A DNA stretch of 64,000 nucleotides from Candidatus Omnitrophota bacterium (GTDB lineage Bacteria; Omnitrophota; Gorgyraeia; Zapsychrales; JANLHA01). Shown here in pieces: positions 8,218-51,156 of this stretch (positions are counted from its first letter, which is position 1; the number at the start of each line of letters is the position of its first letter). The stretch covers positions 4,664 to 68,663 of the forward strand of contig JAHFFT010000006.1 of NCBI GenBank assembly GCA_023247795.1, given 5' to 3'. The position numbers were made by a program, and so were the translations under genes. Below the pieces are notes generated by a model. That model saw only the letters and a program-made list of their open reading frames with translations. It had not been told where the DNA came from and made no database searches.

Positions 8218-8355
8218 CTATACAGTTAAGCGGTGCCGGCCTTTTGCTCGACGTCTCTTTAAGACTTCCCGGCCACCAGAAGCTGACATTCTTCGTCGAA
8301 AACCGTGTAATCTTTTGCCTTTTAAGTTGGATTTTGATTTGAGATGCTTCTTCAT
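8218..8355 (-). CDS. rpmH: 50S ribosomal protein L34
   Basis: Manual translation: [45 protein letters not shown] (45 aa). Not in the ORF track because it is under 60 aa. Confidence 0.85.
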
Positions 8356-8887
8356 AGTTCGCAAATTATAACATAGTCGATAACTCAGTCAAGCTATTTC
8401 CTAATGCATTGCTTAGCAGAGACATAAAAGTCTTTCAAAAAAAAGGAGTTACCAACATTTCGACTCCATATTCTAATTATGGAAAGGCGCCCAACAGAAA
8501 ATTGATTTGCATATTTTAGGTAGTTTGTTATAATGAAAATCCTTTACGAAAAAAAACACATTTCCATAAGATTTGGTTAAATTTTTTCTAATAGCGTTCG
8601 TGTGCATTTCAAAAGTCGTAAAATTCGCATAATTAACAGCTGTGTATAACCTGTGGAATCACACTTCAAAAGCACATAAAACGTTTATTTACAACTGTTT
8701 ACATTTAATTAAGACTGTTGATAACTTTTTTAAAAACACCGTTTTCTTGGAAATCCTATTATCACACGTCCTGCGCCGTAACAATGAACGACGTTAAAAT
8801 ATCCATTGCATTAACGACCACAAACATTTATCATTGACATTACTCAATTTGCTTTCTCAACTTTTATTGCGCGTTAATATCTAAATC
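8356..8887. promoter_or_regulatory. probable oriC / dnaA control region (rpmH|dnaA divergent intergenic)
   Basis: AT-rich 530-bp spacer. One-mismatch DnaA-box variants TGTGTATAA (8641) and TGTTGATAA (8716), plus weaker ones. AT tracts that could be the unwinding element. A sigma70-like TTGCAT-16nt-TATAAT sits at 8504-8535. Gene orientation in the window flips here. Confidence 0.5.
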
Positions 8888-11498: not shown

Positions 11499-14224
<2,726 letters not shown>

Positions 14225-14232
14225 TGGTATTT

Positions 14233-14350
14233 AAGTAACAAGTTGCAGGTTGCAGGTTTCGGGCAAAAAATTTTGCGATAAAGTCCTTGTCACTTGTCAC
14301 TTGTGACTTGTAACATGAGACTTACTTGAGACCTGCAGCATGAGACTTGA
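14233..14350. repeat. intergenic repeat family C (AAGTAACAAGT...GTGACTTGTAAC...TGAGAC) with terminal dyad GTTGCAGGT/ACCTGCAGC
   Basis: Starts at the gyrB stop codon. Related copies at 17793, 23772, 23866 and 25753. Confidence 0.6.
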
Positions 14351-16835: not shown

Positions 16836-16901
16836 CTCTTTTTCCTTGACCGGAAACGGCTGTTTTGAATATAATACCCTCTTTTGTTCTACGTAATAAT
16901 T

Positions 16902-17058
16902 GACCATGCCGACTAGCCTGGTCAGGACACCCCGTCTTCGGCGGGGCAAGCGGGTTTGGCAGTGTCTTATCAATAAAAGCATTTTTGACCCCATCGTCTA
17001 GCCTGGTCAGGACACCCCGCCTTTGGCGGGGCAAGCGGGCTTGACAGTGTTCTATCAA
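16902..17058 (+). pseudogene. two tandem degenerate tRNA-Glu-like copies (5' half plus GC hairpin), period about 85 nt
   Basis: Each unit opens with GACC(C)CATCGTCTAGCCTGGTCAGGACAC, identical to the 5' half of the downstream tRNA-Glu. A CCCCG-loop-CGGGG hairpin and a conserved AT-rich spacer replace the anticodon and T arms. Neither unit has a 3' acceptor strand. Confidence 0.5.
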
Positions 17059-17071
17059 AAAAAGTATTTTC

Positions 17072-17145
17072 GACCCCATCGTCTAGCCTGGTCAGGACAC
17101 AAGCTTTTCAAGCTTGCAGCGCGGGTTCAAATCCCGCTGGGGTCG
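17072..17145 (+). tRNA. tRNA-Glu (anticodon TTC)
   Basis: GACCCCATCGTCTAGCCTGGTCAGGACACAAGCTTTTCAAGCTTGCAGCGCGGGTTCAAATCCCGCTGGGGTCG. Acceptor GACCCCA/TGGGGTC and T-arm GCGGGTTCAAATCCCGC. Confidence 0.85.
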
Positions 17146-17240
17146 CAAATATCAGGGCTTGAGTTAAAACTGACTTTTTGAGTTTCGGGCGGCGATAAGA
17201 TTAATTAACGCCGCTGGTATAAAAATATAAGGAAAGGGGG

Positions 17241-17612: not shown

Positions 17613-17792
17613 GAATCGATGTTTTTATCAAAATCATCAGTGATCAAGAGTTGAAGAACGTCGCCGAATCCACAAGAACGGGAGACGATGTTTTCGGGTA
17701 AATCTTACCAAAGGTAAGACGGGAAAATCTGCCAACCGCACCCTTAACTAATCCCGTAGGCGTAGGCAGATATTTTCGGGTCGGTCTCTGGA

Positions 17793-17863
17793 AAGTAACA
17801 AGTCACAAGCTGCAAGTCTCAAGTTGAAAATGACGTGTGACTTGTAACTTGAGACATGAGACT
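17793..17863. repeat. intergenic repeat family C copy
   Basis: AAGTAACAAGTCACAAGCTGCAAGTCTCAAGTTGAAAATGACGTGTGACTTGTAACTTGAGACATGAGACT. Internal complementary blocks ACAAGTCAC/GTGACTTGT and GTCTCAAGTT/AACTTGAGAC. Confidence 0.6.
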
Positions 17864-17939
17864 ATTTTAAAAAGCCGTGCTGAGTTTTTTTTAGCATCCA
17901 GAGCTTGACATAACCTCATGGGTATGTTAAAAATGAAAT

Positions 17940-23775: not shown

Positions 23776-23938
23776 CAAGTCCCAAGCGACATGTCTCAAG
23801 TTGAGAATGACATGTGACTTGTAACTTGAGACGTGAGACTAAATTAACAGGGACAGCCCCCACTGGATAGTCCCAAGCGACATGTCCCAAGTTGAGAATG
23901 AGATGCGACTTGTAACTTGAGACTTGAGACAAGATTAA
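23772..23938. repeat. two tandem repeat-family-C units separated by a GGGACAGCCCCCACTGGATA REP-like segment
   Basis: AGTCCCAAGCGACATGTCTCAAGTTGAGAATGACATGTGACTTGTAACTTGAGACGTGAGACT appears twice, with about 90% identity between the two. Confidence 0.6.
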
Positions 23939-23959
23939 CAAAGAGAGTCCTTACAGTAC

Positions 23960-24979: not shown

Positions 24980-25055
24980 ATGGTCGTTGCAATTTAAGTA
25001 TCGGTCATTAGAATAGAAAATATCTGTGATTGAAAACCTACTGAGGAGGAAAGCG

Positions 25056-25712
25056 ATGTTAAAAATTTATGGAGCGGATTTATCGACGCCGGCGAATAAG
25101 GTTCGGTTTGTGGCGAACGCGCTAGGATTGAAGTACGAGTATATCCGGATCAGCATCCGTGAAAAGGAAAATCAAAAGCCCGAATATTTGAAGATCCATC
25201 CGGCCGGCAAGATTCCTGCAATCAACGACGACGGATTTATCCTGTTTGAAAGCAACGCGATCATTCGCTATCTCACCTGCAAGCAAAAATCCGATCTGTA
25301 TCCGCAGGACTTGAAACAGCGCAGCCTGATTGATCAATGGATGGATTTTGCATCGCTGCATGTTGCCGCGGCTATGAACAAGGTGGTTTTCAATCGATTG
25401 TTTGCTCCGGTCATCGGCGTTCCCGTCGATGAACAGTCGTTGAATGACGGCTTGAAGTTTTTGCACAGATTTTTACCGGTTGTGGATAACCAGGTTGGCA
25501 AGGAAGGGCTTTTTGCGGGCAAGGACCTGTCTTTGGCGGATTTCAGTTTGTTGGCCGCGTTGGATGCCGCGGATGTCGTGCAAATTGACTTGGCCGCACA
25601 CAAAAATATCGTGAAATGGCGCAATACCATGCAGCAAAAAGATTTTTATACCAAATGTTATCGAAATTACGGCGAAGTGTTGCAGAAGATGATGGCGGCC
25701 GCGCCTAAATAA
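25056..25712 (+). CDS. glutathione S-transferase family protein
   Basis: MLKIYGADLSTPANKVRF...IHPAGKIPAINDDGFILFESNAIIRYL. Start placed at the Met after the GAGGAGG RBS. Confidence 0.8.
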   Translation: MLKIYGADLSTPANKVRFVANALGLKYEYIRISIREKENQKPEYLKIHPAGKIPAINDDGFILFESNAIIRYLTCKQKSDLYPQDLKQRSLIDQWMDFASLHVAAAMNKVVFNRLFAPVIGVPVDEQSLNDGLKFLHRFLPVVDNQVGKEGLFAGKDLSLADFSLLAALDAADVVQIDLAAHKNIVKWRNTMQQKDFYTKCYRNYGEVLQKMMAAAPK

Positions 25713-25717: not shown

Positions 25718-25835
25718 GGGGACAGTCCCTAAGGGGACAGCCCCCACTGGATATACAAGTCCCAAGCTGCAAGTTTCAAGTTGAAAATGACCTGTAACTT
25801 GTAACTTGAGACATGAGACTTGTGACATGAGACAT
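25718..25835. repeat. REP doublet (GGGGACAGTCCCT AA GGGGACAGCCCCC ACTGGATA) fused to a repeat-family-C unit
   Basis: Direct sequence match to the REPs at 35864 and 49986 and to the repeat-C copies. Confidence 0.6.
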
Positions 25836-26642
25836 ATGAAAGTAGCCGCTGTACAGCTTAACGCTCAGGACGATAAGGAACAAAATCTCAAACAGGCTTT
25901 TGCGTTGGTCCATCAGGCTGCCCAAGCCAAGGCCGAGCTGATTGCCTTGCCCGAGGTTTTTCATTTCCGCGGAAAAGTTCCGCAAGAACAACTTTATCAG
26001 CAAATCGCGGAAAATATCCCTGGCAGGTCAACGACCCCTTTTTTACAACTCGCCCGCGATAAGAAGGTTTATATCCTTTTAGGCTCGATCTACGAGTGGC
26101 GTAAGAAAAAAAATAAAATCAGCAATACGTCGATTTTGATTGATCCTCGGGGAAAAATTTTGGCCCGCTATCGAAAAATACATTTGTTTGACGCGGTGGT
26201 TAATAAAAAAGTCATCCGTGAATCAAAGAATTTTCTTCCTGGCCGTCAATTGGCGATGGCTAAGGTCAAAAATTTTAATTTGGGATTGACGATTTGCTAT
26301 GATTTGCGTTTTTCTAATCTTTATCGACGGTATTCTCAAAAGGGCTGTGACATCATCGCGGTCCCGTCGTCATTTACCAAAAAGACCGGCACCGCGCATT
26401 GGGAAATATTGCTGAGGGCCCGGGCCATCGAAACCTTAAGCTATGTGATTGCCCCGAATCAGGTCGGAAAAGATCGACGAGGAATCGAGACTTACGGGCA
26501 CAGCATGATTGTCAGCCCCTGGGGTGAGATTTTGGCCAAGGCCTCGGCGGACAAAACGGAAATCATTTATGCCGAGTTAAAAAAAAGTTACGTTGAAGAG
26601 GTGCGAAAAATTTTTTTAAACAGGAGGCGTCGTTATGAGTAA
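25836..26642 (+). CDS. carbon-nitrogen hydrolase (nitrilase superfamily)
   Basis: [13 protein letters not shown]...ALPEVF (Glu), ...RKIHLFD (Lys), ...ICYDLRF (Cys). Confidence 0.8.
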
Positions 26643-30901: not shown

Positions 30902-32830
30902 ATGATGCTAACAACTCAGAAAAATTTCATCAAACAGCCCGCGATCATTTCCGTTTTAACCCTTGTGTTTTTCTCTTCTTTGGTTACTGTCCCAAAAGTT
31001 TCTGCCTTACAGGACGTCGTGGATACGATGAAAGAAGACAAGGTCTCCCTCAATAAGGGCGACTTGGTTTCTTTGAAGGTTTCTCAGCTCACGCGGATCG
31101 CGATCAGCAACCCCGGCATCATTGACGTGGTTAACGCTGATGAGAAAGAGATTCTCATCATTGGGCGCGCGGTGGGTGAGACGCCGATTTTTATTTGGGA
31201 TGAAAACGGCAAACGAAAAATCATGGCCCGGGTCATGGAAGAGGAGTTGGATTCTTTGACGCAGAGAATCCAAGAGTTACTGGATGATGCGGATATCAAA
31301 GACGTTGATTTAAAAAAGAACAATTATGAAGGGAAGATCATTGCTTCGGGGCATATCCTTAAGCAAAAAAAGGACGAGTTTGAAAAAATCATGGGTCAGT
31401 TCAGCACCAATGTGATCAATATGGTCAAAGAGGAAGAAGATCTCGTCCAAATCGATGTGCAGATTTCGGAATTGAATACAACGCTTTCAAAAGAATTGGG
31501 TTTTGACTGGACGGCCGGAAGTTCCGATCATATCGTTTTGGGGTATCAGGAAGTGCTGCCGACGTTTGCCGGCCGCAGCGTCGAGGACTGGTTCAAGCTT
31601 GGCCGATTTGACCGGACCAACGCCATCTTGGCGACGGTGGACTTATTGATCCAAGAAGGAAAGGCGCGCACCTTATCGAAGCCGAGTATTCTTGTCTCTA
31701 ACGGTGAGGAAGCCTCATTTCACGTCGGAGGCGAAATCCCGGTCCGGACCACTACGACCTCAACCGGAGGCGCGTCGGTCCAGCAAAACGTGAGTTTTAA
31801 GCAATACGGTATTGATTTGACTGTTACGCCAGAGATCAAAGATGGAAAAGTGGACATGACATTGCATGTTTCCGTCCGCGATATTGATGCCGCGAACGCC
31901 GTCGGCGATGACGTGGCTTTTACCAACCGGCAAGCCAATACCAAAGTCCTTTTGGATGATAAACAAACCATCGTGATCGCCGGTCTCATCAAGCAGCAGC
32001 AGGGCGAGACGGTTAATCGAGTTCCATTTTTAAGTTCCATTCCTTTGGTAGGATTTCTTTTTCGACATACCGCTACTCCGACTCCCAATCAAGATCAGGA
32101 GTTGGTGGTTTCTTTGACACCCACCATTGTTCGGCAAAAACGACCGGGGCGGGATATTGGCCCGGAGCCTAATCGGCCAATTTCGGATCAGGTTAAAGAG
32201 GAAAAGCTTCCCGAGGTTAGTAAATTAGAGGAAGCGAAGAAAGCAGATGCCGTTGCAACGACTGAGAGCCAAGAGAGCCAAGCGGAGCAAAATTTAAATA
32301 ATGTCGATTTGCCGGAATTTGCAGAGCAGCCCGTCGCTGTGCCAGAGCAGCCGGCTGCGGTGGCCGCCCCTGAGGAGGAGCCAAGTGAACAAACCATTAC
32401 CTTAGCACCATACGGGGATGTTGATAATACGACGAACGTCGTTGCTGCCCCTGTTGCTCCTTCAGCCCAGCCCCAGGAAAGTCCAAAGGTGGCGGACGAA
32501 GGCTCTACCAATGCCATAGCCACTTATGTGCAAGCTATTCAAAAACGGATTTCAAATACCATTTCTTATCCTTATGAAGCCCGTGAGAACAATTGGCAGG
32601 GAACGGTCAAGTTGAATTTGGTTTTGGAGAAGGACGGTAACTTGAAAGAGGCGAAAGTGGAACAGTCGTCGGGATATGATGTTTTTGATAAGGACGCGGT
32701 CAATACGGCATTGATTTTGGCACCTTTCGATCCCTTTCCAGCTGAAATCGATTTGGAAGAGCTGGTTGTCACTGTTCCGATTGTTTATAGTCAGGAAGCG
32801 GTTTTTGGCGATAGCGAGCAGCAGAACTAG
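30902..32830 (+). CDS. cpaC: Tad secretin CpaC/RcpA with C-terminal TonB_C-like domain
   Basis: Secretin core ...VPFLSSIPLVGFLFRHT...VVSLTPTIVRQ, a Pro/Glu/Ala-rich linker, and a C-terminus YVQAIQKRISNTISYPYEARENNWQGTVKLNLVLEKDGNLKEAKVEQSSGYDVFDKDAVNTALILAPFDPFP that resembles TonB_C. Confidence 0.8.
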   Translation: MMLTTQKNFIKQPAIISVLTLVFFSSLVTVPKVSALQDVVDTMKEDKVSLNKGDLVSLKVSQLTRIAISNPGIIDVVNADEKEILIIGRAVGETPIFIWDENGKRKIMARVMEEELDSLTQRIQELLDDADIKDVDLKKNNYEGKIIASGHILKQKKDEFEKIMGQFSTNVINMVKEEEDLVQIDVQISELNTTLSKELGFDWTAGSSDHIVLGYQEVLPTFAGRSVEDWFKLGRFDRTNAILATVDLLIQEGKARTLSKPSILVSNGEEASFHVGGEIPVRTTTTSTGGASVQQNVSFKQYGIDLTVTPEIKDGKVDMTLHVSVRDIDAANAVGDDVAFTNRQANTKVLLDDKQTIVIAGLIKQQQGETVNRVPFLSSIPLVGFLFRHTATPTPNQDQELVVSLTPTIVRQKRPGRDIGPEPNRPISDQVKEEKLPEVSKLEEAKKADAVATTESQESQAEQNLNNVDLPEFAEQPVAVPEQPAAVAAPEEEPSEQTITLAPYGDVDNTTNVVAAPVAPSAQPQESPKVADEGSTNAIATYVQAIQKRISNTISYPYEARENNWQGTVKLNLVLEKDGNLKEAKVEQSSGYDVFDKDAVNTALILAPFDPFPAEIDLEELVVTVPIVYSQEAVFGDSEQQN

Positions 32831-32953
32831 GATCTTTTGACGGGCGGGTGTCTTTGAATTAGATTTAAAGCGCATGGCATATCTTGAAGTGTGAAGAAGC
32901 ACAGCTAAAAATTTTCTTCCAGAAGCATTCTATTTTTTAATCATCCCCTTCTT

Positions 32954-35116
32954 ATGGAATCAAGAACGATCACGGTTTTCAGCAATAAAGGCGGCGTTGG
33001 CAAGACCTTTATTGCGGTTAATCTCGCGACCGCCCTTGCCGCCACCGGCAAGCGGGTTCTGCTTTTGGATTTGGATTTTCAGGCCTACCACGATATGTCA
33101 AGGATGCTGAACTTGGTTCCCCGCCAATCTTTGGCCAATCTCATCTCGGAAATCGAATCCATGGAAGATCCCGAGACGATCACCAAATTTACAATCACGC
33201 ACGACAGCGGCTTGGATTTTTTGCCGGCGGTTGTTCATACCAAACAAATCGGACACATCACCGCGAGCAATATCAAACCGTTTTTTAAGAAGGCCAGGCA
33301 GATTTATGATTACATCATTGTCGACGCTGGCAAGGCCTTCAGCGAGATTCTGCTCACGGTCCTCGATCATTCCAATTTGATCCTTTTGGTCGCGACCCCC
33401 GACATCTTAGCAGTCTATCAAATCAAGTCGTGCTTGGAGTTGTTAACCAGTCTGCATTTCCCTTTGAAGATCGTTAAAGTGATTCTTAATCGCTCGGAGA
33501 GCCGTGGTGGTGTCGCCTGGCAAGAGGTGCGTTCAGCGCTTTCCTGTGAGATTTTTGGTCAGATCCCGTCGGACGGGAAGGCCGTTGGCATGGCGCTCAA
33601 TCGTGGCGTTCCAGTCGTAGTCGATAGTCCGAAGGCCGCTGTTTCGGAAGCGTTCAATAAAATGGCCAACGATCTTAAAAGGGATGAAATTTATGTCCAG
33701 GCCGCGGAATTGGCCAAGGTGCGGCAGTCCGAGGATTTGGACAAGTCCGTCAAATTTTGGGAAAAATTTGGGATCACTCAGCATTCGTTGGGGGGAGGGC
33801 ATGATTATTTCGCTAAGGAAGAAGATGAGATTGTTACGTTGAAGAAAAAAATCCATGAGAAGCTGGTGAACCGTTTGCACGTCGAGGATCTCAGTCCGGA
33901 GGTCTTAGGGGATCCGCACAAAGCCCAAGAGCTGAAGAACTCGGCGCAAAAGATCGTCGGGAATCTCTTGATGGAAGAAAAGGGCGGAATGATCGCCTCG
34001 CATGAAGAACGCAGCCGCATTGTTAAGGAGATTGTCGATGAAGCGCTGGGGCTGGGAGCACTTGAAGAATTTTTAGCCGATCCAGACGTGACCGACATCA
34101 TGGTGAACAGCAAAGAAGAGCTCTATATTGAAAAAAATGGCAAATTGATTTTGACCAACAAACGATTTTTATCCGATCAGCAGATGCGTTCGATTATGGA
34201 CCGGATCATCGCCCCGTTAGGCCGGCGGATTGATGAGTCAGTGCCCATGGTGGACGCCCGTCTTCCCGACGGGTCGCGGTTCAACGCGATCATCCCACCA
34301 TTGTCGTTGAACGGCCCGATGATTACGATTAGAAAATTTGGCGTTGAGCGATTGGAACTCAACGATTTGATGGAAAAATATCGCAGCTTCAGCCCGCCCA
34401 TGCAGGATTTTCTCAATGCCTGCGTGTTGGGCCGGCAGAATGTTGTGGTTTCCGGAGGGACCGGGGCGGGAAAAACGACTTTGCTCAATGTGTTGTCTTC
34501 GTTCATCCCCGATGATGAAAGGATCATCACCATTGAGGACGCGGCCGAATTGCGGCTGAAGAAACAGCATTGGGCGCGTCTGGAGGCCCGGCCGTCGAAC
34601 GTGGAAGGCCGCGGGTCGGTCTCCATCCGCGAGTTGTTTATCAATTCGCTGCGTATGCGGCCAGACCGCATCATCATTGGGGAATGCCGAGGGGCCGAGG
34701 TTTTGGATATGTTGCAGGCGATGAATACCGGCCACGATGGATCGATGACCACCTTGCACGCCAATTCAACACGGGATGTGATGGTTCGGATGAGTTCGAT
34801 GATTTTGTTGAGCGGTATCGAACTGCCGACCCACGCCATCAATCAAATGATCTCATCGGCCATTGACGTGATCGTGCACGTGGCCCGTCTCTCCGACGGG
34901 AGCCGCAAGATCACCGGCGTTACCGAAATTGTTGGAATGCTTCCGGATTATCAGTTGGACCTCAGAGACATTTTTTATTTTAAGCCTTCCGGCCGGTCCG
35001 AGGAGGGGGTGGTTTTAGGCGAATTTTTCGCGACCGGATACATCCCCAAATGCTATGACGACTTTATGACGATGGGTTTTAAGTTGGATAAGTCGATCTT
35101 CAATAAATCCACGTAA
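32954..35116 (+). CDS. fused CpaE/TadZ-like ParA/MinD ATPase plus CpaF/TadA secretion ATPase (720 aa)
   Basis: N-terminal NKGGVGKT deviant Walker A (MinD/ParA fold, about 260 aa). C-terminal VSGGTGAGKTTLLN...IITIEDAAEL...GHDGSMTTLHANS (VirB11/CpaF ATPase). Confidence 0.8.
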   Translation: MESRTITVFSNKGGVGKTFIAVNLATALAATGKRVLLLDLDFQAYHDMSRMLNLVPRQSLANLISEIESMEDPETITKFTITHDSGLDFLPAVVHTKQIGHITASNIKPFFKKARQIYDYIIVDAGKAFSEILLTVLDHSNLILLVATPDILAVYQIKSCLELLTSLHFPLKIVKVILNRSESRGGVAWQEVRSALSCEIFGQIPSDGKAVGMALNRGVPVVVDSPKAAVSEAFNKMANDLKRDEIYVQAAELAKVRQSEDLDKSVKFWEKFGITQHSLGGGHDYFAKEEDEIVTLKKKIHEKLVNRLHVEDLSPEVLGDPHKAQELKNSAQKIVGNLLMEEKGGMIASHEERSRIVKEIVDEALGLGALEEFLADPDVTDIMVNSKEELYIEKNGKLILTNKRFLSDQQMRSIMDRIIAPLGRRIDESVPMVDARLPDGSRFNAIIPPLSLNGPMITIRKFGVERLELNDLMEKYRSFSPPMQDFLNACVLGRQNVVVSGGTGAGKTTLLNVLSSFIPDDERIITIEDAAELRLKKQHWARLEARPSNVEGRGSVSIRELFINSLRMRPDRIIIGECRGAEVLDMLQAMNTGHDGSMTTLHANSTRDVMVRMSSMILLSGIELPTHAINQMISSAIDVIVHVARLSDGSRKITGVTEIVGMLPDYQLDLRDIFYFKPSGRSEEGVVLGEFFATGYIPKCYDDFMTMGFKLDKSIFNKST

Positions 35117-35117
35117 C

Positions 35118-35465
35118 GTGACCCGCATCATCAATCAAACCAAACAAACTGTTATCGCAACCGAAGGAAGAATCGCCGACACCATGGTCTCTCGCCTGGT
35201 AGGACTTTTAAACCGCGAATCGATGGCTCGACGAGAAGCTCTTATCATAACCCAATGCCGCGGCATTCACATGTTTTTTATGCGGTTCGCGATTGACGTG
35301 ATTTTTGTCGACGGGGACGATCGGATTGTTGGTTTGGTCAGAAATATTAAGCCGTTTTGTATCAGCCCGTATTTTTGGCAGGCATGCTCAGCGATTGAAT
35401 TGCCTTCTGGAGTGATTGATCAAACCCGGTGTGCGATGGGGGACAGGATTGTTATTGCTCCATAG
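35118..35465 (+). CDS. DUF192 family protein
   Basis: ...GLLNRESMARREALIITQCRGIHMFFMRFAIDVIFVDGDDRIVGL... fits the DUF192 (COG1430) pattern. Confidence 0.55.
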   Translation: MTRIINQTKQTVIATEGRIADTMVSRLVGLLNRESMARREALIITQCRGIHMFFMRFAIDVIFVDGDDRIVGLVRNIKPFCISPYFWQACSAIELPSGVIDQTRCAMGDRIVIAP

Positions 35466-35515
35466 GCCCTCAGTGTCCCAGTTTTTTTGGGCCTGGGCAA
35501 CGGGGACTCTCAAGA

Positions 35516-35758
35516 TTATTCTTCCATGACTCCAAAATCATTGATGGATTGGTCCAATTCATCCAGCCAGTGTTCGCAGAATTTGCAGTAGATGGCTGGT
35601 TTATTAATTTTTTTGCCGCAGTAAGTGCACGCCTTTTTATCGCTGTCGGGATAATCGATTTTCAGAAGATCATCAACGATGATGTTTTTGCAATGCGGGC
35701 ATTCTTTGCCCTCAGTGTCGGGGGAGACATCATCGAAGCAATAAGGACATTTATGCAT
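35516..35758 (-). CDS. double zinc-ribbon small protein
   Basis: CPYC...CPHC and CTYC...CKFC pairs in 80 aa. Confidence 0.5.
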   Translation of the reverse strand: MHKCPYCFDDVSPDTEGKECPHCKNIIVDDLLKIDYPDSDKKACTYCGKKINKPAIYCKFCEHWLDELDQSINDFGVMEE

Positions 35759-35863
35759 AGGAATCCTTGATTAAAGTGAATGGAAAAAGTTTAAGGTTAT
35801 GTCTTTCATCGCTAAGGTCATTATACAACAAGATTTTTAAAAGCGAAAAGAGAAGTTGTTTTT

Positions 35864-35924
35864 AGGGGACAGTCCCCTTATACTAGGGGACAGTCCCCTA
35901 GGCATTAAATGTCCATTCTGAATT
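35864..35924. repeat. two REPs (AGGGGACAGTCCCCT) followed by AAATGTCCATTCTGAATT
   Basis: Inverted orientation of the CAGAATGGACATT-N-AGGGGACAGTCCCCT composite found at 49966, 50662 and 51121. Lies 10 bp upstream of the ORF starting at 35936. Confidence 0.7.
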
Positions 35925-35935
35925 AGGGATTTTTT

Positions 35936-37720
35936 ATGGGAGTTATTCATAAACTCAAACAAGAAGTTGTACAGTTCATTGTCCAAAAGAAGAAGGATCT
36001 CCCGCAGGTCAGCTGTCGAAAGATGGCGGATTTTGTCCATACCGCATTTGAATTAAATCTCTCTAAGTCGGCGATTAACAACATTTTACAGAGATCGACG
36101 TTAAGTAGTCCGGTGGGCAGGCGGCCACAAGACCCCGGCCGAAAAGAATCGGTTGTTCAACAGGGTGTTAAAGCCAAATCTTTTAAAATTCCCGATCAGA
36201 AGAAAATATTAGGGGGACAGTCCCCAAAAAGGGACTGTCCCCCTCCTGGTTTTCCTCCTGTTCCCCCGCTTCAACCGTCTAAGTCTCCTCTTCCTCCGGT
36301 CGCACAGAGTCAGCGTAAATTCAGTGTGAAAAGAGCCTCTTCATTGCAGCCAAAAGAGGGACTGTCCCCTAAAGGGGACAGTCCCCCTAAGCTACCAAAG
36401 ACGCTTTATGATCATATGGGCAGCATTTTTCTAAAGGCGGCAGAATGGGAGATTTCCGACGGGCCACTTTTGGGAAAAATACTAAAGGATCATCTGCCGG
36501 CCGGATTTTCTCAGCAAGAGCTGGAGCAGGCCGGGGAAGTGCTTTTATTTTTGCAAGTATTTGGGATTAAAAGACTTGAAGATTTTATTCATTACACAAA
36601 AGACGGATTATGGGCGATTAACGGTCTAAAAACCAAAATCCCATTTTTCAAGATCAATGATTTAGCACGATTTTTGAATACCGTTTCGGGGGTAAGAGCA
36701 CAGCTGCAAATACACATTTCACAATTAGTTACAAAAGCAGCCTATATCAAGGTGGTCTTTAAAGCCGGTAATTGCTTATGGGTAGATGCCCTGGGCGCCG
36801 GGCTGAGTTCTGCGAAGAGAAAAGGGCCCAATTTTTCGTCCATCAACCAGATCACCACAACAATGATCAATCAATGGTTAATGCCGCGTGAGCCGCTGAT
36901 TCTGGGTGCTGTTCAGGATGGCCAATCGCTTTATCATTTGGCGGCAGGCTTTGCTAATGACACGAATCGAAAATTACATAAGATCATGGCTTTTGGTTAT
37001 GACGATCAAGAGATCATTGCCTTTGATTCCTTCATTGACACAAAACGATCATTTCTCGTCGGACTATGGCCGTCGCAGGAGTTTTATCAGCAACTTTTTG
37101 GATCGCAAGATTTTGTTTATAAGAAAAATTTTGAAATGACCGATGGCCATAAGCAGGTTGCCTATGATGAAATGACCGTTAAAATCAAAGATCCGGTTGG
37201 GGAGTTACATCCCATTTCGTTAAGGGCGGTGGGGTTTGAAATGCCAGGGAACCAGCCGCAAATGGGCGTTATTTTAACCAATATGAGTGATAAGGAAATG
37301 ACAGCAGCGGGACTCATCAGTGCTTATGTTCAGCGCTGGCCCTGTTTTCAAGAATCGAAATCGCTACAAAATTTTCTGCAACCCAATGTCTCGGAAGAGT
37401 ATGTGTCTCAAGATGAAAATATTTCCAACGATTTATCCGAGGCCAATGATTTGCATATTGCACTTAACTATTTGAATCGCTACGGCCAAGAGGCCTTTTT
37501 TCCATCAGCATACGGCGATTTAGACCTATCATCAATGACATCAATATTTTACAACATAGCCGGATATTTACAGTGTACCAAAGAGCTGGTAAAAGTTGAA
37601 CTGATTATGCCAAGGGAAGATTATCCTTATCAAAATGATTTGGCTCTGGCGGTCAGGAAGGTCAATGAGCGCAATATCAGCGATTTTCAGGGAAGAAAAT
37701 TATTTTTGTCATGTTTATAA
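35936..37720 (+). CDS. 594-aa transposase-like protein (N-terminal HTH; C-terminal Y-x2-R-W...E...K like the IS4/IS1634 C1 motif) carrying two in-frame REP insertions
   Basis: REP doublets at 36212-36243 and 36358-36387 are translated as ...GGQSPKRDCPPPG... and ...KEGLSPKGDSPPK.... The YVQRWPCFQESK block resembles DDE-transposase C1. The family call is tentative. Confidence 0.35.
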   Translation: MGVIHKLKQEVVQFIVQKKKDLPQVSCRKMADFVHTAFELNLSKSAINNILQRSTLSSPVGRRPQDPGRKESVVQQGVKAKSFKIPDQKKILGGQSPKRDCPPPGFPPVPPLQPSKSPLPPVAQSQRKFSVKRASSLQPKEGLSPKGDSPPKLPKTLYDHMGSIFLKAAEWEISDGPLLGKILKDHLPAGFSQQELEQAGEVLLFLQVFGIKRLEDFIHYTKDGLWAINGLKTKIPFFKINDLARFLNTVSGVRAQLQIHISQLVTKAAYIKVVFKAGNCLWVDALGAGLSSAKRKGPNFSSINQITTTMINQWLMPREPLILGAVQDGQSLYHLAAGFANDTNRKLHKIMAFGYDDQEIIAFDSFIDTKRSFLVGLWPSQEFYQQLFGSQDFVYKKNFEMTDGHKQVAYDEMTVKIKDPVGELHPISLRAVGFEMPGNQPQMGVILTNMSDKEMTAAGLISAYVQRWPCFQESKSLQNFLQPNVSEEYVSQDENISNDLSEANDLHIALNYLNRYGQEAFFPSAYGDLDLSSMTSIFYNIAGYLQCTKELVKVELIMPREDYPYQNDLALAVRKVNERNISDFQGRKLFLSCL

Positions 37721-38312
37721 TACGAATACTAATATATAACAATTCTGTAACTTGACATTTAAAATAAGAGCATGTTATACTTTAAAAGTGAAGAGGGGGG
37801 AGATCTGGCTGCTTATCAGGAGCAGGGAATGATTGTAAGTTTTTTTGAACAAATAAGATACATATTCCAGAATGGCCTCGCATTTCTTTTTTTAAGATAT
37901 CATCCTTTTGAACATCATCTCCATCCATCGCGGGCTGGAGATTTTTTATTGACTGCAAAGTCTTTCGAGAAAAGGCGTGTTGCAAGCGATCTGACCTTGC
38001 TTTTAGCAGGGATGATTCTGTGGGCCCATCCAGTGGTCTGCAGATGCCGGCTGCAAAATTTGGCCGGTAATAGAGTCCGAGAGTGAATTCTGCTTGAAGC
38101 GCGGGGATGCTTTAAGGCGGACAAGGGTTATTTGAAACGTTAGGACAGAAACATTTGAACAAAGGCGACAACAGCAAATTTTTAAAAAAATCAGGCCTTT
38201 GATCAGAGAAGTTTGGTCTTAACCGCAAATGACTTAAGAAAAGGGTTCACACCTGAAGGGATTTGTAAAGTTGTTTTAGCAACGTTAGTAGTCATTTTGA
38301 AGGAGGATAGCA

Positions 38313-38543
38313 ATGTATAAGAAAAGGAATCAAAAAAAGAAAGGGCAGAGTACGCTGGAATATATCATTTTAGTCACCGGTGTGATCGCCGTTCTTATTA
38401 TTTTTTTAAAGCCGGATACAGGTATTTTCACCCAGGCCTTCAATGGTGTTTTGGGTAGCGCCAAAGACGGCATGGTTAATATGTCAAACCGGTTATCGGG
38501 ATCTTGGCCTTCGGATCAAGTGGGTACAAAAACCGGGGGATAA
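38313..38543 (+). CDS. Flp/Tad-type prepilin A (76 aa)
   Basis: Leader MYKKRNQKKKG, then QSTLEYIILVTGVIAVLIIF (Gly at -1, Glu at +5 class-III prepilin motif). GGAGG RBS. Confidence 0.7.
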   Translation: MYKKRNQKKKGQSTLEYIILVTGVIAVLIIFLKPDTGIFTQAFNGVLGSAKDGMVNMSNRLSGSWPSDQVGTKTGG

Positions 38544-38578
38544 GATCAGCAAAGAAATTAAAAACGGAGGAACAATCC

Positions 38579-39010
38579 ATGTTTAGAAAGTTAATGAAGA
38601 ATAAGAAAGCGCAGCAGACCGCGGAGTACGCGTTGCTGATTTCGCTGGTGGTCGCGGCGGTGATCGCGATGCAGACTTACGCTCAGCGCGCGATTCAAGG
38701 ACGTATCCGCGATGCCTCGTCGTATTTGGTTGAGAAAACACCGGAACTCGGAGACATTAATCAATACGAACCTTATTATCTAAAAACCGATTATCATATT
38801 GACTCTTTTGATGAAACGACCGAGAGTCATACGAATGAAATCAAAGGCGGTAAATTCGAGTCTGACACCTACTCTGAACGCACCAGACAGAAAGATGGGT
38901 TTCAGGCTTCAGATTATAAGTCGGTTGTGACTGAAGATAGTTTTAAGCCCAGTGGAGGATCGGGCACCAGTACCGGAGGAACGCCTCCAGCTGGCGGCAC
39001 GACCCCGTAA
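38579..39010 (+). CDS. TadE-like pseudopilin B
   Basis: MFRKLMKNKKA/QQTAEYALLISLVVAAVIAM (TadE-type N-terminus). GGAGG RBS at 38565. Confidence 0.65.
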   Translation: MFRKLMKNKKAQQTAEYALLISLVVAAVIAMQTYAQRAIQGRIRDASSYLVEKTPELGDINQYEPYYLKTDYHIDSFDETTESHTNEIKGGKFESDTYSERTRQKDGFQASDYKSVVTEDSFKPSGGSGTSTGGTPPAGGTTP

Positions 39011-39073
39011 TAGAGGATGCTAAATTGATCCAATTCTCTTTGCAGAGAAATTAAATTGAGGAGGAGGCGAGAC

Positions 39074-39397
39074 ATGTTTAAATTTTTAAGGAAGATGAAA
39101 GGGCAGAGCACCCTGGAATACGCGGTTTTGATCATCATTGTCATTGGTGCTTTGTTGTCCATACAAATGTATATTAAGCGCGGCATCCAAGGTCGTCTAC
39201 GAAGTGCTGCCGACGATATCGGCGATCAGTATGATCCAGGTAACGTCAATTATCGTGTTCACACAACTGTTGTTAGTAACACGCACGATACATTTATAGA
39301 CGGGAAAACCAATTCGACCTTATTGCAGCCGGAAAAAACAATCACAACGGTCAATTCCGAGATTGTTAACGCGGAGCAGACCTTTTGGGGGAGATGA
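39074..39397 (+). CDS. prepilin-like protein C (GDQYDP family)
   Basis: MFKFLRKMKG/QSTLEYAVLIIIVIGALLSI...DDIGDQYDPGN. GAGGAGG RBS. Confidence 0.65.
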   Translation: MFKFLRKMKGQSTLEYAVLIIIVIGALLSIQMYIKRGIQGRLRSAADDIGDQYDPGNVNYRVHTTVVSNTHDTFIDGKTNSTLLQPEKTITTVNSEIVNAEQTFWGR

Positions 39398-39469
39398 TTG
39401 GATCTTCATGATACCCGCAAAATGGAGAAGCATTTTGTTAAGTTAACAAGAGGGCCCAGGAGGACAGCA

Positions 39470-39700
39470 ATGATAAAGAAAAGGAATCAAAAAAAGAAAG
39501 GGCAGAGCACGCTGGAATATATCATTTTGGTCACCGGTGTGATCGCCGTTCTTATTATTTTTTTAAAACCGAATGGAGGCATTTTTACCAAGGCCTTCGA
39601 TGGTGTTTTGAATAGCGCCAAAGACGGCATGGTTAATATGTCAAACCGGTTATCGGGATCTTGGCCTTCGGATCAAGTGGGTACAAAAACCGGGGGATAA
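39470..39700 (+). CDS. prepilin A' (paralog of 38313)
   Basis: MIKKRNQKKKGQSTLEYIILVTGVIAVLIIFL..., nearly identical to A. Confidence 0.7.
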   Translation: MIKKRNQKKKGQSTLEYIILVTGVIAVLIIFLKPNGGIFTKAFDGVLNSAKDGMVNMSNRLSGSWPSDQVGTKTGG

Positions 39701-39735
39701 GATCAGCAAAGAAATTAAAAACGGAGGAACAATCC

Positions 39736-40119
39736 ATGTTTAGAAAGTTAATGAAGAATAAGAAAGCGCAGCAGACCGCGGAGTACGCGTTGCTGATTTC
39801 GCTGGTGGTGGCAGCGGTGATCGCGATGCAGACCTACGCCCAGCGCGCGATTCAAGGACGTATCCGCGGCGCATCGGCGTGGCTGGTTTCCGCGACAAAT
39901 GAGATTGGAACAACGAACCAGTATGAACCGTATTATTTGGACACCAAATATGAAATTGACAGCTATGATAAAACCACGGAGGTTCATACGAATCAAGCCG
40001 GCACCGGCGGTAAGTTTGACACCGATACTTATTCTGAGCGCACCAGAAAAGCGGGTGGTGCCCAAGTTTCAACGTATGATATGCCTATAAAGACCGATGA
40101 AACACAGTGGAAAAATTAA
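39736..40119 (+). CDS. TadE-like pseudopilin B' (paralog of 38579)
   Basis: N-terminal 60 aa identical to B. The C-terminal half has diverged. Confidence 0.65.
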   Translation: MFRKLMKNKKAQQTAEYALLISLVVAAVIAMQTYAQRAIQGRIRGASAWLVSATNEIGTTNQYEPYYLDTKYEIDSYDKTTEVHTNQAGTGGKFDTDTYSERTRKAGGAQVSTYDMPIKTDETQWKN

Positions 40120-40207
40120 TAACCGCTGAGGGTGTTCAGATTTCAAGCGGAGGTTAAGAGGATTAAAATCTCTTTTTAGAGAAATTCAATTAAGGAGGAG
40201 GCAAGAC

Positions 40208-40540
40208 ATGTTTAAATTTTTAAGGAGGATGAAAGGGCAAAGCACCCTGGAATACGCGGTATTGATTATCATTGTCATCGGGGCCTTGCTGTCGATACAA
40301 ATGTATATCAAGCGTGGTATCCAAGGCCGGTTGCGCAGTGCGGCCGACGACATCGGCGATCAGTACGATCCAGGTAACACCAATTATGTTAGAACAACCG
40401 AGGTTGCCAGCAATACGAGGGATACTTTTAAAGCCGGCATTACGAATTCTGTTTTACTAGATGATGAGACGACCACGACAATTGTGAATAGTACAATTAT
40501 CAATGCCGAGCAGACCTTTTGGGGAAATGAGAAAAAGTAG
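40208..40540 (+). CDS. prepilin-like protein C' (paralog of 39074)
   Basis: MFKFLRRMKGQSTLEYAVLIIIVIGALLSIQMYIKRGIQGRLRSAADDIGDQYDPGN. C-terminus diverged. Confidence 0.65.
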   Translation: MFKFLRRMKGQSTLEYAVLIIIVIGALLSIQMYIKRGIQGRLRSAADDIGDQYDPGNTNYVRTTEVASNTRDTFKAGITNSVLLDDETTTTIVNSTIINAEQTFWGNEKK

Positions 40541-49952: not shown

Positions 49953-49965
49953 AAAAGGAATAATC

Positions 49966-50000
49966 CAGAATGGACATTAATTTAAAGGGGACAGTCCCCT
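49966..50000. repeat. composite CAGAATGGACATT-N7-AGGGGACAGTCCCCT (REP)
   Basis: Exact motifs, 5 bp from the 3' end of the RAYT gene. Confidence 0.7.
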
Positions 50001-50005
50001 GTTAA

Positions 50006-50545
50006 TTATTCCTCTACTTCGTAAGAATCAAGAATTTGGAACCAGGAATAGGTGTCTTGATCTGTATAATCTTCAATGGGTTTGAGTGCTGAATTGATGC
50101 GTTTGTGTCCAGTGTGATAAGCCGCGCTCGACCACTCCCATTCCCAGGCTTTTTTTACTAGTTTTGCCTGTACCGGGTTACATTCTACATAACGGATAGC
50201 CGCCAAAAGATGATCTTCTTCCAGTAAGCACGAATAAAATCTTTCCTGCCAAAAATGTCCATTTAGATTACGTTTGCGATGCTGATCTTGAGCATAGCGC
50301 ATATGACAAACGCTAAACGCCTTTGCCAGGGAATCCTCTTTGTGGGGGATGACTATAAAGTGGACATGATTGCTCATAAGGCAATAGGCGAGGATGGACA
50401 TGGTGTATTTTTCGCTATATTCACAAATCCAAGAAAGGTATTTTAAATGATCGGCGTCATCAAAAAAGACCGTTTGTTGATAATTCCCCCTCTGGACGAC
50501 GTGATATGGGTAGTCTGGTATTACAATGCGTGCTGTTCGTGGCAT
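50006..50545 (-). CDS. REP-associated tyrosine transposase (RAYT; IS200/Y1 HUH family)
   Basis: HUH motif MSNHVHFIV; ...GHFWQERFYS...IRYVECNPVQAKLV...WEWSS... matches the RAYT C-terminal catalytic-Tyr region (compare E. coli YafM WQPRFW...NP...W.WSS). Flanked by REPs. Confidence 0.8.
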   Translation of the reverse strand: MPRTARIVIPDYPYHVVQRGNYQQTVFFDDADHLKYLSWICEYSEKYTMSILAYCLMSNHVHFIVIPHKEDSLAKAFSVCHMRYAQDQHRKRNLNGHFWQERFYSCLLEEDHLLAAIRYVECNPVQAKLVKKAWEWEWSSAAYHTGHKRINSALKPIEDYTDQDTYSWFQILDSYEVEE

Positions 50546-50661
50546 AATCTACAAATTGATGTGGGGGGTACTAAAAAAGTTGGGTGCGGGAATATGAGGA
50601 CAATAGTTTATACAACAATTTTGATAAAATGTCAAGTCTTTAGGGGCAATCACCAAATTTT

Positions 50662-50717
50662 CAGAATGGACATTTAAAAATAGGGGACTGTCCCTATTAT
50701 TAAAAATGTCCATTCTG
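50662..50717. repeat. 56-bp perfect palindromic composite: CAGAATGGACATT / AGGGGACTGTCCCT / AATGTCCATTCTG
   Basis: The arms are exact reverse complements around a central REP. Lies upstream of the RAYT gene. Confidence 0.75.
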
Positions 50718-51120
50718 AATGTCTACTGTATTGGAGTTATCTTACCTAATTTAGGCATATAAACTGTTGTGGATTAAGGTGTTAATGAGAAAATTATTTT
50801 TTTACACCCTTGTTCTTATCGATATTTATGTTATACTTACTTTGCAAGTGATTATAGAATTTTATTAGATTCATAACATGTTGTAGTAAAACAGTTTAAG
50901 ATATGATAAAAGCCACGGATATCTTAAATTTGAGTATTAAATTTAATTTTGGTAAAGTTTAAGGGGCTGCCGAAATCGAGGCAGTCTTTTTTTATTTCAT
51001 CGGCCGATGAAAATGACACTCAAACAACTAACCGCAACACCCCAAAGGGAACTTCAAAAAGAGTTCCCTCCATTCATCACTTGCACAGAGGGAGCCTCCT
51101 TAGCCCTAAAATCCATTTTT

Positions 51121-51156
51121 CAGAATGGACATTATATCAAAAGGGGACAGTCCCCT
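51121..51156. repeat. composite CAGAATGGACATT-N8-AGGGGACAGTCCCCT
   Basis: Exact motifs, 19 bp upstream of the giant ORF start codon. Confidence 0.7.

Follow-up and report, generated by a model that had tools for sequence, protein, structure and literature searches.

A TIRYT-type Y1 HUH gene bracketed by inverted repeats, the probable source of dispersed palindromes in an uncultured Omnitrophota bacterium

The window analysed here is a 64-kb stretch of the genome of an uncultured Omnitrophota bacterium; 21 kb of a sister genome was also read, at loci picked by pattern. The window holds one copy of a gene for a Y1 HUH protein, with Tad pilus genes as neighbours and no tnpB at the locus. On either side of this gene stand inverted copies of a palindrome, which also occurs elsewhere. 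An earlier note on this DNA described the gene as a RAYT and the palindromes as REPs, each accompanied by a 13-mer. The features of the locus and of the dispersed copies are these:

50006-50545, minus strand: TIRYT-type Y1 HUH gene, 179 aa; HUH histidines H60/H62, catalytic tyrosine Y119
49966-49978, plus strand: outer 13-mer box CAGAATGGACATT of the 3'-side repeat; exact match, aligns with the box at 50705-50717
49987-49999, plus strand: inner palindrome of the 3'-side repeat, GGGGACAGTCCCC, 6 nt downstream of the stop codon
50607-50635, minus strand: putative promoter of the gene, TTGACA-17 nt-TATAAA, noted by direct reading of the upstream sequence
50660-50719, no strand assigned: upstream repeat, a 'double-foot' quasi-palindrome, with a 13-mer (plus) at 50662-50674, the palindrome at 50683-50695 and a 13-mer (minus) at 50705-50717
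51121-51155, plus strand: full-length composite standing alone (13-mer, 9-nt spacer, palindrome), 13 nt before the ATG of a giant ORF
35865-35920, minus strand: palindrome doublet (35865, 35886) and 13-mer (35908-35920), 16 nt upstream of a 594-aa ORF
36213-36242, no strand assigned: inverted palindrome doublet inside the 594-aa ORF, in frame, encoding GGQSPKRDCPP
36357-36386, no strand assigned: second intragenic doublet, in frame; one unit only in the sister species
25718-25745, plus strand: direct doublet without 13-mer, just past the stop of the ORF 25026-25712; the second of its units, GGGGACAGCCCCC, is a variant and is joined to a different repeat family
23849-23861, plus strand: degenerate form of the palindrome, AGGGACAGCCCCC, joined to the repeat family found at the 25733 unit
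1168-1180, minus strand: solo palindrome between tRNA-Leu and tRNA-Cys, in a spacer of 41 nt

Translation of the ORF at 50006-50545 confirms the motifs HVHFIV, WQERFYS, NPV (within YVECNPV) and WEWSS previously read in it, and the catalytic His-x-His and Tyr are both intact. The 179-aa protein matches Pfam Y1_Tnp (E 1.4e-14). Used as a single sequence against solved structures it gives no match; a family profile is required, which finds E. coli TnpA-REP (4ER8) as its best match and aligns H60/H62 with H59/H61 and Y119 with Y115 of that enzyme. The catalytic tyrosine lies within a Y-x3-NP helix (Y119-N123-P124), as in RAYTs. Among NCBIfam models the best match by name is REP_Tyr_transpos (NF047646, an equivalog), at 64.8 bits and thus below its cut-off of 80, and the IS200 model NF033573 reaches 26 bits, below its cut-off of 55. 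Closer relatives are found among the TIRYTs, the kind that was named, together with the TIRtron, by Di Nocera, De Gregorio and Rocco in 2013 (PMC3733652). With the sequences in Additional file 5 of that paper as references, blastp gives 42-48% identity to three published TIRYTs, namely pca_3049 (48%, E 1e-51), aba_2776 (E 1e-46) and gsu_2396 (E 5e-46). The E values range from 1e-51 to 1e-31 for TIRYTs and from 5e-12 to 8.5e-5 for RAYTs, the latter extreme being the E. coli RAYT (21.5% identity); this grouping rests on pairwise blastp. The key motifs of TnpA-Y1 subclass 2.1 as defined in Table 1 of Quentin et al. 2018 (PMC6006769), i.e. NHVH, W[EQ], a Y[IV]ELNP-like motif and SS after the core, are present as SNHVHF, FWQERF, RYVECNPV and WEWSSA. 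The TIRYT assignment fits this subclass, which is equivalent to the Group 1 RAYTs of Bertels et al. 2017 (PMC5581495). By sequence comparison, the gene can be classed with the TIRYTs already described, as a tamed transposase gene of the kind acting on single-strand DNA. The earlier identification as a RAYT is retained as far as the RAYT-related Y1 HUH class is concerned, but not as a canonical GTAG-REP RAYT, given the sub-cut-off score and the missing tag.

The window ORF ends at column ~183 of the family alignment, and the C-terminal ~45 aa of the family (IRKHT..GRPLG...RGRPKK) are missing, with seven conserved tail positions gone; across the family, the tail domain measures about 45-70 aa. 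Because the conserved tail is absent and no remnant of it encoded near the gene was found, the window copy is regarded as a truncated member. Of 65 positions with a conservation of 90% or more, six deviate (T17V, Y87D, N89H, L98F, G101E and R126Q), where the family has a mean of 1.7 such deviations and a maximum of 9. Lacking the conserved tail (GRPxG...RGRPKK), this gene copy may be weakened or inactive. An exact-protein look-up found no identical protein on record for the 179-aa ORF, and a 131-aa version of the gene call turned up nothing but contigs of 8 kb whose sequence is that of the window. The promoter-like sequence at 50607-50635 was not flagged by a promoter scan because the last base of its second hexamer is A; in the homologue loci, TTGACA directly follows the upstream repeat. 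Promoter-like sites detected by the scan show no excess (5, compared with 4.4 by shuffle).

Inverted repeats carrying GGGGWSAS flank the gene, as in the TIRYT/TIRtron arrangement. The 3'-side palindrome stands 6 nt past the stop codon, where 5 bp had been given, and the upstream palindrome core is 137 nt from the ATG, the 117 bp formerly attributed to it being the distance in nt to the 13-mer. The 3'-side repeat at 49966-49999 has its counterpart in the outer half of the upstream one, on the minus strand at 50683-50717. Aligned with each other, these flanks correspond along ~42 nt and preserve both boxes (score 44, against at most 23 in shuffles). Read on the strand of the gene, AGGGACAG is found upstream, pointing toward the gene, and CTGTCCCC downstream, at 49987-49999, as in the homologue loci. 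The 3'-side copy has the spacing from the stop that is usual in the family; the upstream repeat lies at -138/-149 instead of about -53, its GGGACAG at -149 where homologues have it at -52 to -55, with ~45 nt inserted, including an extra inner 13-mer. The structure at 50662-50717, formerly described as a perfect 56-bp palindrome, has 38 ungapped matches in 56, with an inner 1-nt offset and mismatches, and only its outer 16 nt form perfect arms (50660-50675 and 50704-50719). As single-stranded DNA, 50662-50717 is computed to fold strongly (-20.9 kcal/mol, z = -8).

The same arrangement is found in other lineages. Seven homologue loci were compared, including those of Nitrospirae/Manganitrophaceae, Omnitrophica, Desulfobacterota and Scalindua MAGs. 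GGGACAG lies upstream of the gene in all seven; six of them have it at -52 to -55 relative to the ATG, and the remaining one (L068) has it at -95, as an inverted pair. CTGTCCC is located +4 to +15 past the stop in five loci, overlaps the gene end in L071 and lies about 0.6 kb downstream in L068; the window copy has its motifs in the same orientation. Since GGGACAG stands at fixed positions beside homologous genes in distant phyla, its link to the enzyme family is not accidental. Moreover, GGGGWSAS, the consensus published for the inverted repeats of TIRYTs (PMC3733652), agrees with GGGGACAG. Repeat copies at the homologue loci are confined essentially to the gene flanks, and dispersal of the repeat is therefore specific to the present lineage. 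The outer 13-mer box is absent from all seven loci.

Within the 64-kb window, GGGGACAGTCCCC with at most two mismatches gives 25 strand-matches for 0.81 expected, a count reached by no shuffle, and GGGGAC(A/T)GTCCCC occupies 13 distinct sites at nine loci for 0.8 expected (1168, 23849, 25718, 25733, 35865, 35886, 36213, 36230, 36357, 36374, 49987, 50683 and 51143). Nine of these sites lie between genes and four in frame inside a single gene; there is none between 36386 and 49987. The claim that the palindrome bracketing the gene is also dispersed is thereby substantiated, as is the presence of further copies, of which 1168, 25733, 36230 and 36374 had been overlooked and the other coordinates were off by one. 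No target-site footprints were found. CAGAATGGACATT occurs exactly at five positions, 35908 (minus), 49966, 50662, 50705 (minus) and 51121, each 8-9 nt from a palindrome, in agreement with the earlier pairing of the two. However, the converse holds for only four of the nine palindrome loci, those at 1168, 23849, 25718/25733, 36213/36230 and 36357/36374 being devoid of the 13-mer; it does not accompany the palindromes generally. Searching the window with an nhmmer profile built on the composite brought up no additional full copies. Instead of a composite bipartite REP, the unit is better read as a full-length ~42-nt terminal inverted repeat, of which the palindrome-only copies represent the inner part. 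With the replication origin placed at 8-10 kb by GC skew and dnaA/dnaN, GGGGACAG is on the lagging-strand template at 10 of the 13 sites (small numbers, one-sided p about 0.05); the 1168 site is left of the origin and has GGGGACAG on the minus strand. The centre base differs between orthologous palindrome copies of two species (A or T), a sign of turnover but also a caution on this strand bias.

The sister Omnitrophota MAG nzgw298 shares 88% nucleotide identity with the window over 7.8 kb and carries the same composite at three loci, of which one is syntenic; none of the three shows a TIRYT match. The composite at 35865-35920 is kept at the same place in both species, and at 36357-36386 an 18-bp in-frame palindrome has been gained or lost between them. 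The 594-aa gene that contains it (35936-37720) is single-copy and syntenic, and is under purifying selection in the two species (differences by codon position 35/33/97). A scan of a genome collection, which covered species representatives and not the source genome itself, gave beyond the three nzgw298 loci, among the matches examined, only chance or unrelated ones, including a Clostridia MAG palindrome containing CAGAATGGACA, rejected as unrelated to the composite. Metagenome and viral scans gave only chance or coding matches.

Taken together, these data are probably best explained if ~49964-50719 is a TIRtron, i.e. a single-copy, host-resident TIRYT gene with its ~42-nt inverted repeat, and the source of the dispersed copies. 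This repeat consists of a lineage-specific outer box, TTCAGAATGGACATT, an AT-rich and non-conserved spacer of 8-10 nt, and an inner hairpin carrying the family-wide GGGGACAG, which is extended here to the 13-bp palindrome GGGGAC(A/T)GTCCCC. The dispersed palindromes and composites of the window and of the sister species would derive from it as full-length solo copies, inner-part-only copies and direct or inverted doublets, some of which lie in frame in a tolerant protein linker. E. coli TnpA-REP and the TnpA of IS200/IS605 are the models from which catalysis on these repeats is inferred: the enzyme, either the present copy or an intact ancestor, would bind the hairpin on transiently single-stranded DNA, cut nearby via Tyr119 with HUH-bound metal, and rejoin the ends. 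Such cutting and rejoining would seed or duplicate repeat copies.

Both boxes are invariant in all eight composite copies and the spacer between them is variable; since the spacer sequence is not conserved, selection acting on the two boxes accounts for the copies more readily than does a simple, recent copy-and-paste of one fixed element. Such a pattern is typical of binding-site selection and leads to the alternative that the host selects palindromes and 13-mer for a structural or regulatory function (as hairpin terminators, stabilisers of mRNA, or binding sites of a nucleoid or transcription factor), the sites spreading and persisting through selection, slippage and gene conversion without the Y1 enzyme, which would be a dead relic sharing the motif. 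The composites lie 13-36 nt from gene starts or just past stops, a scan finds three terminator-like sites (1.0 expected), two of which are palindromes, and the enzyme is truncated and divergent. In addition, the 13-mer core WTGGACATT is clustered in yidC (7497-7643), beside the origin, with 13 sites for 1.7 expected and independently of any palindrome. Nevertheless, we consider this alternative unlikely: GGGACAG flanks homologous genes at fixed positions in distant phyla, most palindromes lack a T-run, four are inside coding sequence, and palindrome orientation relative to neighbouring genes is inconsistent.

The yidC cluster also bears on the invariant 13-mer itself, whose role would most likely be that of a second recognition or cleavage box or of a host-factor site. 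In this respect, E. coli BIMEs also pair REPs with a protein-binding module (the IHF site), and in IS608 the cleavage site lies at a fixed distance outside the hairpin. If the 13-mer were a cleavage box, the left end of IS608 would provide the model of a substrate made of box, 8-10-nt spacer and hairpin. That the 13-mer is a second, separately recognised module, either a Y1 cleavage/guide box or the host-factor site of the yidC cluster, is a speculative proposal to which we give a low probability. Concerning other roles, a DnaA box was rejected (poor match to TTATCCACA, and no 13-mer in the yidC-dnaA spacer). The 15-bp array in yidC was likewise rejected as an inserted element, a full HMMER search and alignment showing a tandem expansion of the native ...LDISxLD... 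motif; a word-indexed homologue search with the periplasmic part of yidC returned nothing. If the two-module proposal is true, the lineage would supply a natural minimal substrate for TIRYT enzymes, for which we know of no biochemical characterisation, and would show how a subclass reported without REPs can make its end-repeat a proliferating, REP-like one that enters coding sequences in frame.

A canonical REP/RAYT system (REPtron), in which an E. coli/Pseudomonas-type RAYT mobilises GTAG-tagged REPs or REPIN doublets, is very improbable and already largely refuted, as judged from the model score, the blastp comparisons and the missing tag. The locus shares with E. coli TnpA-REP, its REPtron and BIMEs (4ER8) the HUH and Tyr core of the Y1 fold with its Y-x3-NP motif, palindromes inverted around the gene and dispersed between genes, the existence of doublets, and REP_Tyr_transpos as the best NCBIfam match by name. 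However, that match remains below the curated cut-off, the protein is far nearer to TIRYTs than to RAYTs (21.5% identity to the E. coli enzyme), the hairpin is different, and the repeat motif is the TIRYT consensus. Furthermore, the GT[AG]G foot is found in none of the 11 main-type palindromes, and CCAC (GTGG on the other strand) occurs only at the variant sites 23849 and 25733. Similarly, the TnpAs of IS200/IS605 elements (IS608, ISDra2) are Y1 HUH enzymes acting with subterminal hairpins, but here the motif is Y-x3-NP and not Y-x3-Q, the IS200 score is 26 for a cut-off of 55, the gene is single-copy and without tnpB, and the ends are inverted rather than direct. Least probable, and hardly to be entertained, is the idea that another mobile element contributed the composites, as its ends or in miniature form, e.g. 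one encoding the 594-aa protein (35936-37720), which has a composite directly upstream and palindromes within its ORF and matches no known family, but whose gene, being single-copy, syntenic and selectively constrained in two species, with no matching repeat on its 3' side and no transposase signature found, was rejected as a transposase gene.

The TIRtron at 49964-50719 resembles those already described in its long gene-bracketing inverted repeats, which carry GGGGWSAS and are partly self-complementary, and in the occurrence of repeat copies elsewhere as singles, dimers and clusters. It differs in its host phylum, Omnitrophota, in the extension of the inner motif to a perfect 13-bp palindrome, in the invariant outer 13-mer box 8-10 nt from the palindrome, and in an upstream repeat that lies further out, at about -140, and forms a quasi-palindrome by doubling, beside a gene without C-terminal tail. 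With subclass 2.1 it has in common the motifs NHVH, WQ, Y[IV]ExNP and SS, homologues of about 225-238 aa, a low copy number and housekeeping neighbours. No REP-like sequences were found for subclass 2.1 (PMC6006769) and the flanking 16-mers of Group 1 are only modestly repeated (PMC5581495), whereas the flank motif is dispersed here over 13 sites in 64 kb. The region 50660-50719 resembles the collapsed inverted dimer of the 'double-foot' REPs of subclass 2.4 (PMC6006769), and the in-frame copies recall intragenic REPs and Rickettsia RPEs, palindromic repeats tolerated in permissive protein regions; Rickettsia RPEs and subclass 2.4 REPs belong, however, to another sequence family and another enzyme subclass.

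What this uncultured Omnitrophota bacterium offers is a further case of a known kind, and no new class of system. The label of the element is corrected from GTAG-REP/RAYT to TIRYT/TIRtron, and this little-studied kind is extended to Omnitrophota. In this lineage, a subclass 2.1 end-repeat appears to have spread in a REP-like way: some copies lie in frame within a conserved gene, and the copy number differs between the sister species. Its clean two-box organisation makes the repeat a convenient substrate for first biochemical tests of TIRYTs, and REP-like spread of an end-repeat would bear on the origin of REP families from transposon ends.

The 179-aa ORF on the minus strand at 50006-50545 carries HVHFIV, FWQERFYS, RYVECNPV and WEWSS, and the translation bears out the earlier note, which had read HVHFIV, WQERFYS, NPV and WEWSS there. 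It matches Pfam Y1_Tnp (E 1.4e-14) and stays under the cut-offs of the NCBIfam RAYT (64.8 bits, cut-off 80) and IS200 (26 bits, cut-off 55) models. Its 1411 homologues, most of them ~225 aa long, come in most cases from MAGs of Omnitrophota, Elusimicrobiota, Scalindua, Nitrospirae and Desulfobacterota. A family profile for structure search, built from 23 of these sequences, ranks E. coli TnpA-REP (4ER8, E 1.3e-4) above an IS200-type transposase; its alignment to 4ER8 matches H60/H62 to H59/H61 and Y119 to the catalytic Y115, and the HUH/Tyr catalytic residues are intact in the window protein. The comparison with TnpA-REP clades proposed in the earlier note was run against published sequences (Additional file 5 of Di Nocera et al. 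2013, PMC3733652). The nearest proteins, at E 1e-51 to 5e-46, are TIRYTs, a Y1 HUH transposase-type class (pca_3049, 48% identity, E 1e-51; aba_2776, E 1e-46; gsu_2396, E 5e-46), whereas canonical RAYTs are much weaker (E. coli b0228, 21.5%, E 8.5e-5; pfs_3939, E 5e-12). This difference settles the assignment: judged by sequence, the gene is of the TIRYT type. Its NHVH, WQ, Y-V-E-x-N-P and SS motifs are those of TnpA-Y1 subclass 2.1, equated by Quentin et al. 2018 (PMC6006769) with Bertels Group 1 (PMC5581495) and probably also with TIRYTs.

The repeats around the gene are real and non-random. At up to 2 mismatches the 13-bp palindrome GGGGACAGTCCCC gives 25 strand-matches in the window (0.81 expected; no shuffle as high), which correspond to 13 sites in 9 places, and the exact 13-mer CAGAATGGACATT occurs five times:
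1168, palindrome
23849, palindrome
25718 and 25733, palindromes
35865 and 35886, palindromes
35908, minus strand, exact 13-mer
36213 and 36230, palindromes
36357 and 36374, palindromes
49966, exact 13-mer
49987, palindrome
50662, exact 13-mer
50683, palindrome
50705, minus strand, exact 13-mer
51121, exact 13-mer
51143, palindrome

Every exact 13-mer (5/5) lies 8-9 nt from a palindrome, forming a composite of 13-mer, spacer and palindrome. The reverse, claimed earlier, does not hold, as five of the nine palindrome loci are without a 13-mer. Nor is 50662-50717 the perfect 56-bp palindrome once described: 38 of 56 positions match ungapped, the interior is offset by one base and perfection is confined to the 16-nt outer arms. 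Folded as single-stranded DNA, this segment is very stable (-20.9 kcal/mol, z = -8). The REP/RAYT label was right about the non-random repeats, and the system is to be relabelled as a TIRYT gene with bracketing terminal inverted repeats (a TIRtron), of the kind described in 2013.

TIRYT genes are flanked by long terminal inverted repeats with a common GGGGWSAS, some self-complementary and some forming moderately abundant families of singles, dimers and clusters (PMC3733652). GGGGACAG fits this consensus. Among seven homologue loci from other lineages, GGGACAG lies upstream of the TIRYT gene in all seven, 52-55 nt before the ATG in six, with TTGACA within a few bases after it in five of those six; in one locus (L068) it forms an inverted pair at -95 and -50. 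Its reverse complement lies 4-15 nt past the stop in 5/7; in L071 it overlaps the end of the gene, and in L068 it is ~0.6 kb downstream. The bases just after GGGACAG vary among loci (ACA, CGA, CGC), both ends of one locus agree, and every repeat is able to fold into a small hairpin. On the gene strand, the window order is CAGAATGGACATT, 9 nt, AGGGACAGTCCCC, gene, GGGGACTGTCCCC, 8 nt, AATGTCCATTCTG, with the polarity of the homologue loci. An alignment of the two flanks extends over ~42 nt and keeps both boxes (score 44, shuffle maximum 23); on this evidence the composite is therefore the long inverted repeat that bounds a TIRtron at ~49964-50719. The segment 50660-50719 consists of that repeat and an additional inner 13-mer, and resembles the 'double-foot' repeats that Quentin et al. 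discuss (PMC6006769). Across eight aligned composites (five in the window, three in the sister Omnitrophota MAG nzgw298), two invariant boxes enclose a non-conserved 8-10-nt spacer, and conservation outside the boxes is weak. None of the seven other TIRYT loci has the 13-mer, which is therefore lineage-specific. The variable spacer, like box positions adjoining genes, would also fit host-selected sites without relation to the enzyme, but the family-wide link of GGGACAG with TIRYT genes makes this main rival improbable.

Further arrangements were observed. At the Nitrospirae locus L063, tandem GAAAATAG(GGACA) units stand beside the TIRYT inverted repeat on both sides (9860-9950 and 10676-10730), and in L068 hairpin inverted dimers (9901-9952 and 11267-11319) enclose the TIRYT gene plus an adjoining 193-aa ORF. 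The 13-nt AATGGACATTTTT is identical at 50252-50264 (codons of the conserved NGHFW motif in the TIRYT gene) and 50703-50715 (outer box and spacer of the gene's own upstream inverted repeat), which may be coincidence or a hint at the origin of the 13-mer.

The gene copy itself is shortened. A C-terminal tail (IRKHT..GRPLG...RGRPKK) is present in all ~225-aa family members. The window ORF lacks it, ending right at the downstream repeat, and the sequence nearby encodes no tail remnant. It deviates at 6 of 65 positions conserved at >=90% (family mean 1.7, SD 1.7, maximum 9). The upstream repeat is ~90 nt farther from the ATG than in homologues, and between them lies a promoter-like TTGACA-17-TATAAA, read from the sequence and unflagged by a promoter scan. 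E. coli TnpA-REP (165 aa, 4ER8) is without such a tail, and by this analogy a tail-less core may therefore still be active.

The window (G+C 46%) is from a sister species of nzgw298 (JAHFFS01), since 31119-38886 (7.8 kb) shares synteny and 88% identity with one of that MAG's contigs. The sign of the GC skew switches at 8-10 kb; dnaA, dnaN and gyrB on the right of this point diverge from yidC (Pfam), jag, parA and parB on its left, and the window therefore contains the chromosomal replication origin, and all from ~9 kb onward is one replichore:
about 8100-8900, origin region (GC skew and gene order)
8888-10249, dnaA
10403-11497, dnaN
11780-14224, gyrB

The Y1 gene has two Tad-pilus T2SSF genes on one side and a giant ORF on the other (start 51169, plus strand, running past the window end at 64000, >4279 aa), whose sole Pfam match is Peptidase_C39 (residues 187-311) and whose ATG is preceded at 13 nt by a full composite. 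Elsewhere, 38301-40387 holds a ~1.15-kb tandem duplication (300 nt at 95%, 242 nt at 85%) with two paralogous small ORFs. Two 85-nt tandem units at 16900-17146 copy the tRNA-Glu 5' part and upstream sequence directly before the intact tRNA-Glu (17072-17146), the tRNA being called in the last unit only. A c-di-AMP riboswitch (Rfam RF00379) lies at 17652-17776 on the plus strand (47.4 bits, gathering threshold 38).

The homologue loci have their repeat copies essentially at the gene flanks only; in the window lineage they are dispersed, in 9 places in the window. The nzgw298 composites lie at three loci, on which tblastn found no TIRYT:
L003, between hemN and a succinate dehydrogenase/fumarate reductase gene
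L007, at a site syntenic with the window
L016, after a 1270-aa gene

Four palindromes lie in frame within the Pro-rich linker of a 594-aa protein (35936-37720, plus strand), intact in both species at 89% amino acid identity, with 35/33/97 differences by codon position. This protein has no match in Pfam or NCBIfam; in nzgw298 it is conserved and shows purifying selection. The second intragenic site has two units in the window and one in nzgw298, an 18-bp in-frame difference, and two orthologous palindromes have A at their centre in one species where the other has T. Of the 12 sites to the right of the origin, 9 carry GGGGACAG on the plus strand, and the sole site to its left carries it on the minus strand; it is hence on the lagging-strand template at 10/13 (small numbers), a placement that would suit a single-strand HUH mechanism.

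Other repeats resemble or touch these elements. Within yidC (6444-8093, minus strand), the segment 7495-7643 holds a tandem array of five 15-bp units, each one mismatch from the 13-mer, which encode FRLDISRLDITRMDNNRLDISRMDNS in frame; two further 13-mer-like sites, at 7593 and 7631, are oriented the other way. The window has 13 copies of the core WTGGACATT against 1.7 expected, all of them in yidC, around the TIRtron or at 35908. Aligned with 12 YidC homologues, the array proves to be a local tandem expansion of the native ...LDISxLD... motif, and an inserted element was rejected. The first codons of the giant ORF (MDESRLDI) have 24 nt at 88% identity in common with the yidC repeat. A second intergenic family of ~60-80 nt (…CAAGTTGA.AATGAC.TGTGACTTGTAACTTGAGAC…), with internal inverted repeats, adjoins the palindrome variant GGGGACAGCCCCCACTGGATA at 23849 and 25733:
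14285-14346, second repeat family
17801-17882, second repeat family
23778-23859, second repeat family
23869-23950, second repeat family
25758-25839, second repeat family

The composite was found in neither a metagenome nor a viral collection. In the Clostridia MAG E12_bin58 (L029, L040, L041), an unrelated dispersed palindromic repeat (…TCCCAGAATGGACATTTTGTCCATTCTGGGAC…) contains most of the 13-mer, a likeness that probably arose as an artefact of the pattern used in the scan.

What the window shows is a TIRYT gene whose inverted repeat has two boxes, together with a family of copies that descend from this repeat. The biochemistry of E. coli TnpA-REP and IS200/IS605 is the established basis for a hairpin-binding, cut-and-rejoin mechanism, by analogy with which the TIRYT enzyme would bind the hairpin on single-stranded DNA and cut and rejoin DNA near it; the 13-mer could be a cleavage or guide box, or else a host-factor site. 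No paper linking Omnitrophota with REPs was found in the literature searched. New here are the phylum Omnitrophota, the perfect 13-bp palindrome, an outer 13-mer box specific to this lineage, dispersal in the manner of REPs for a subclass reported to lack them, and in-frame intragenic copies that differ between species.
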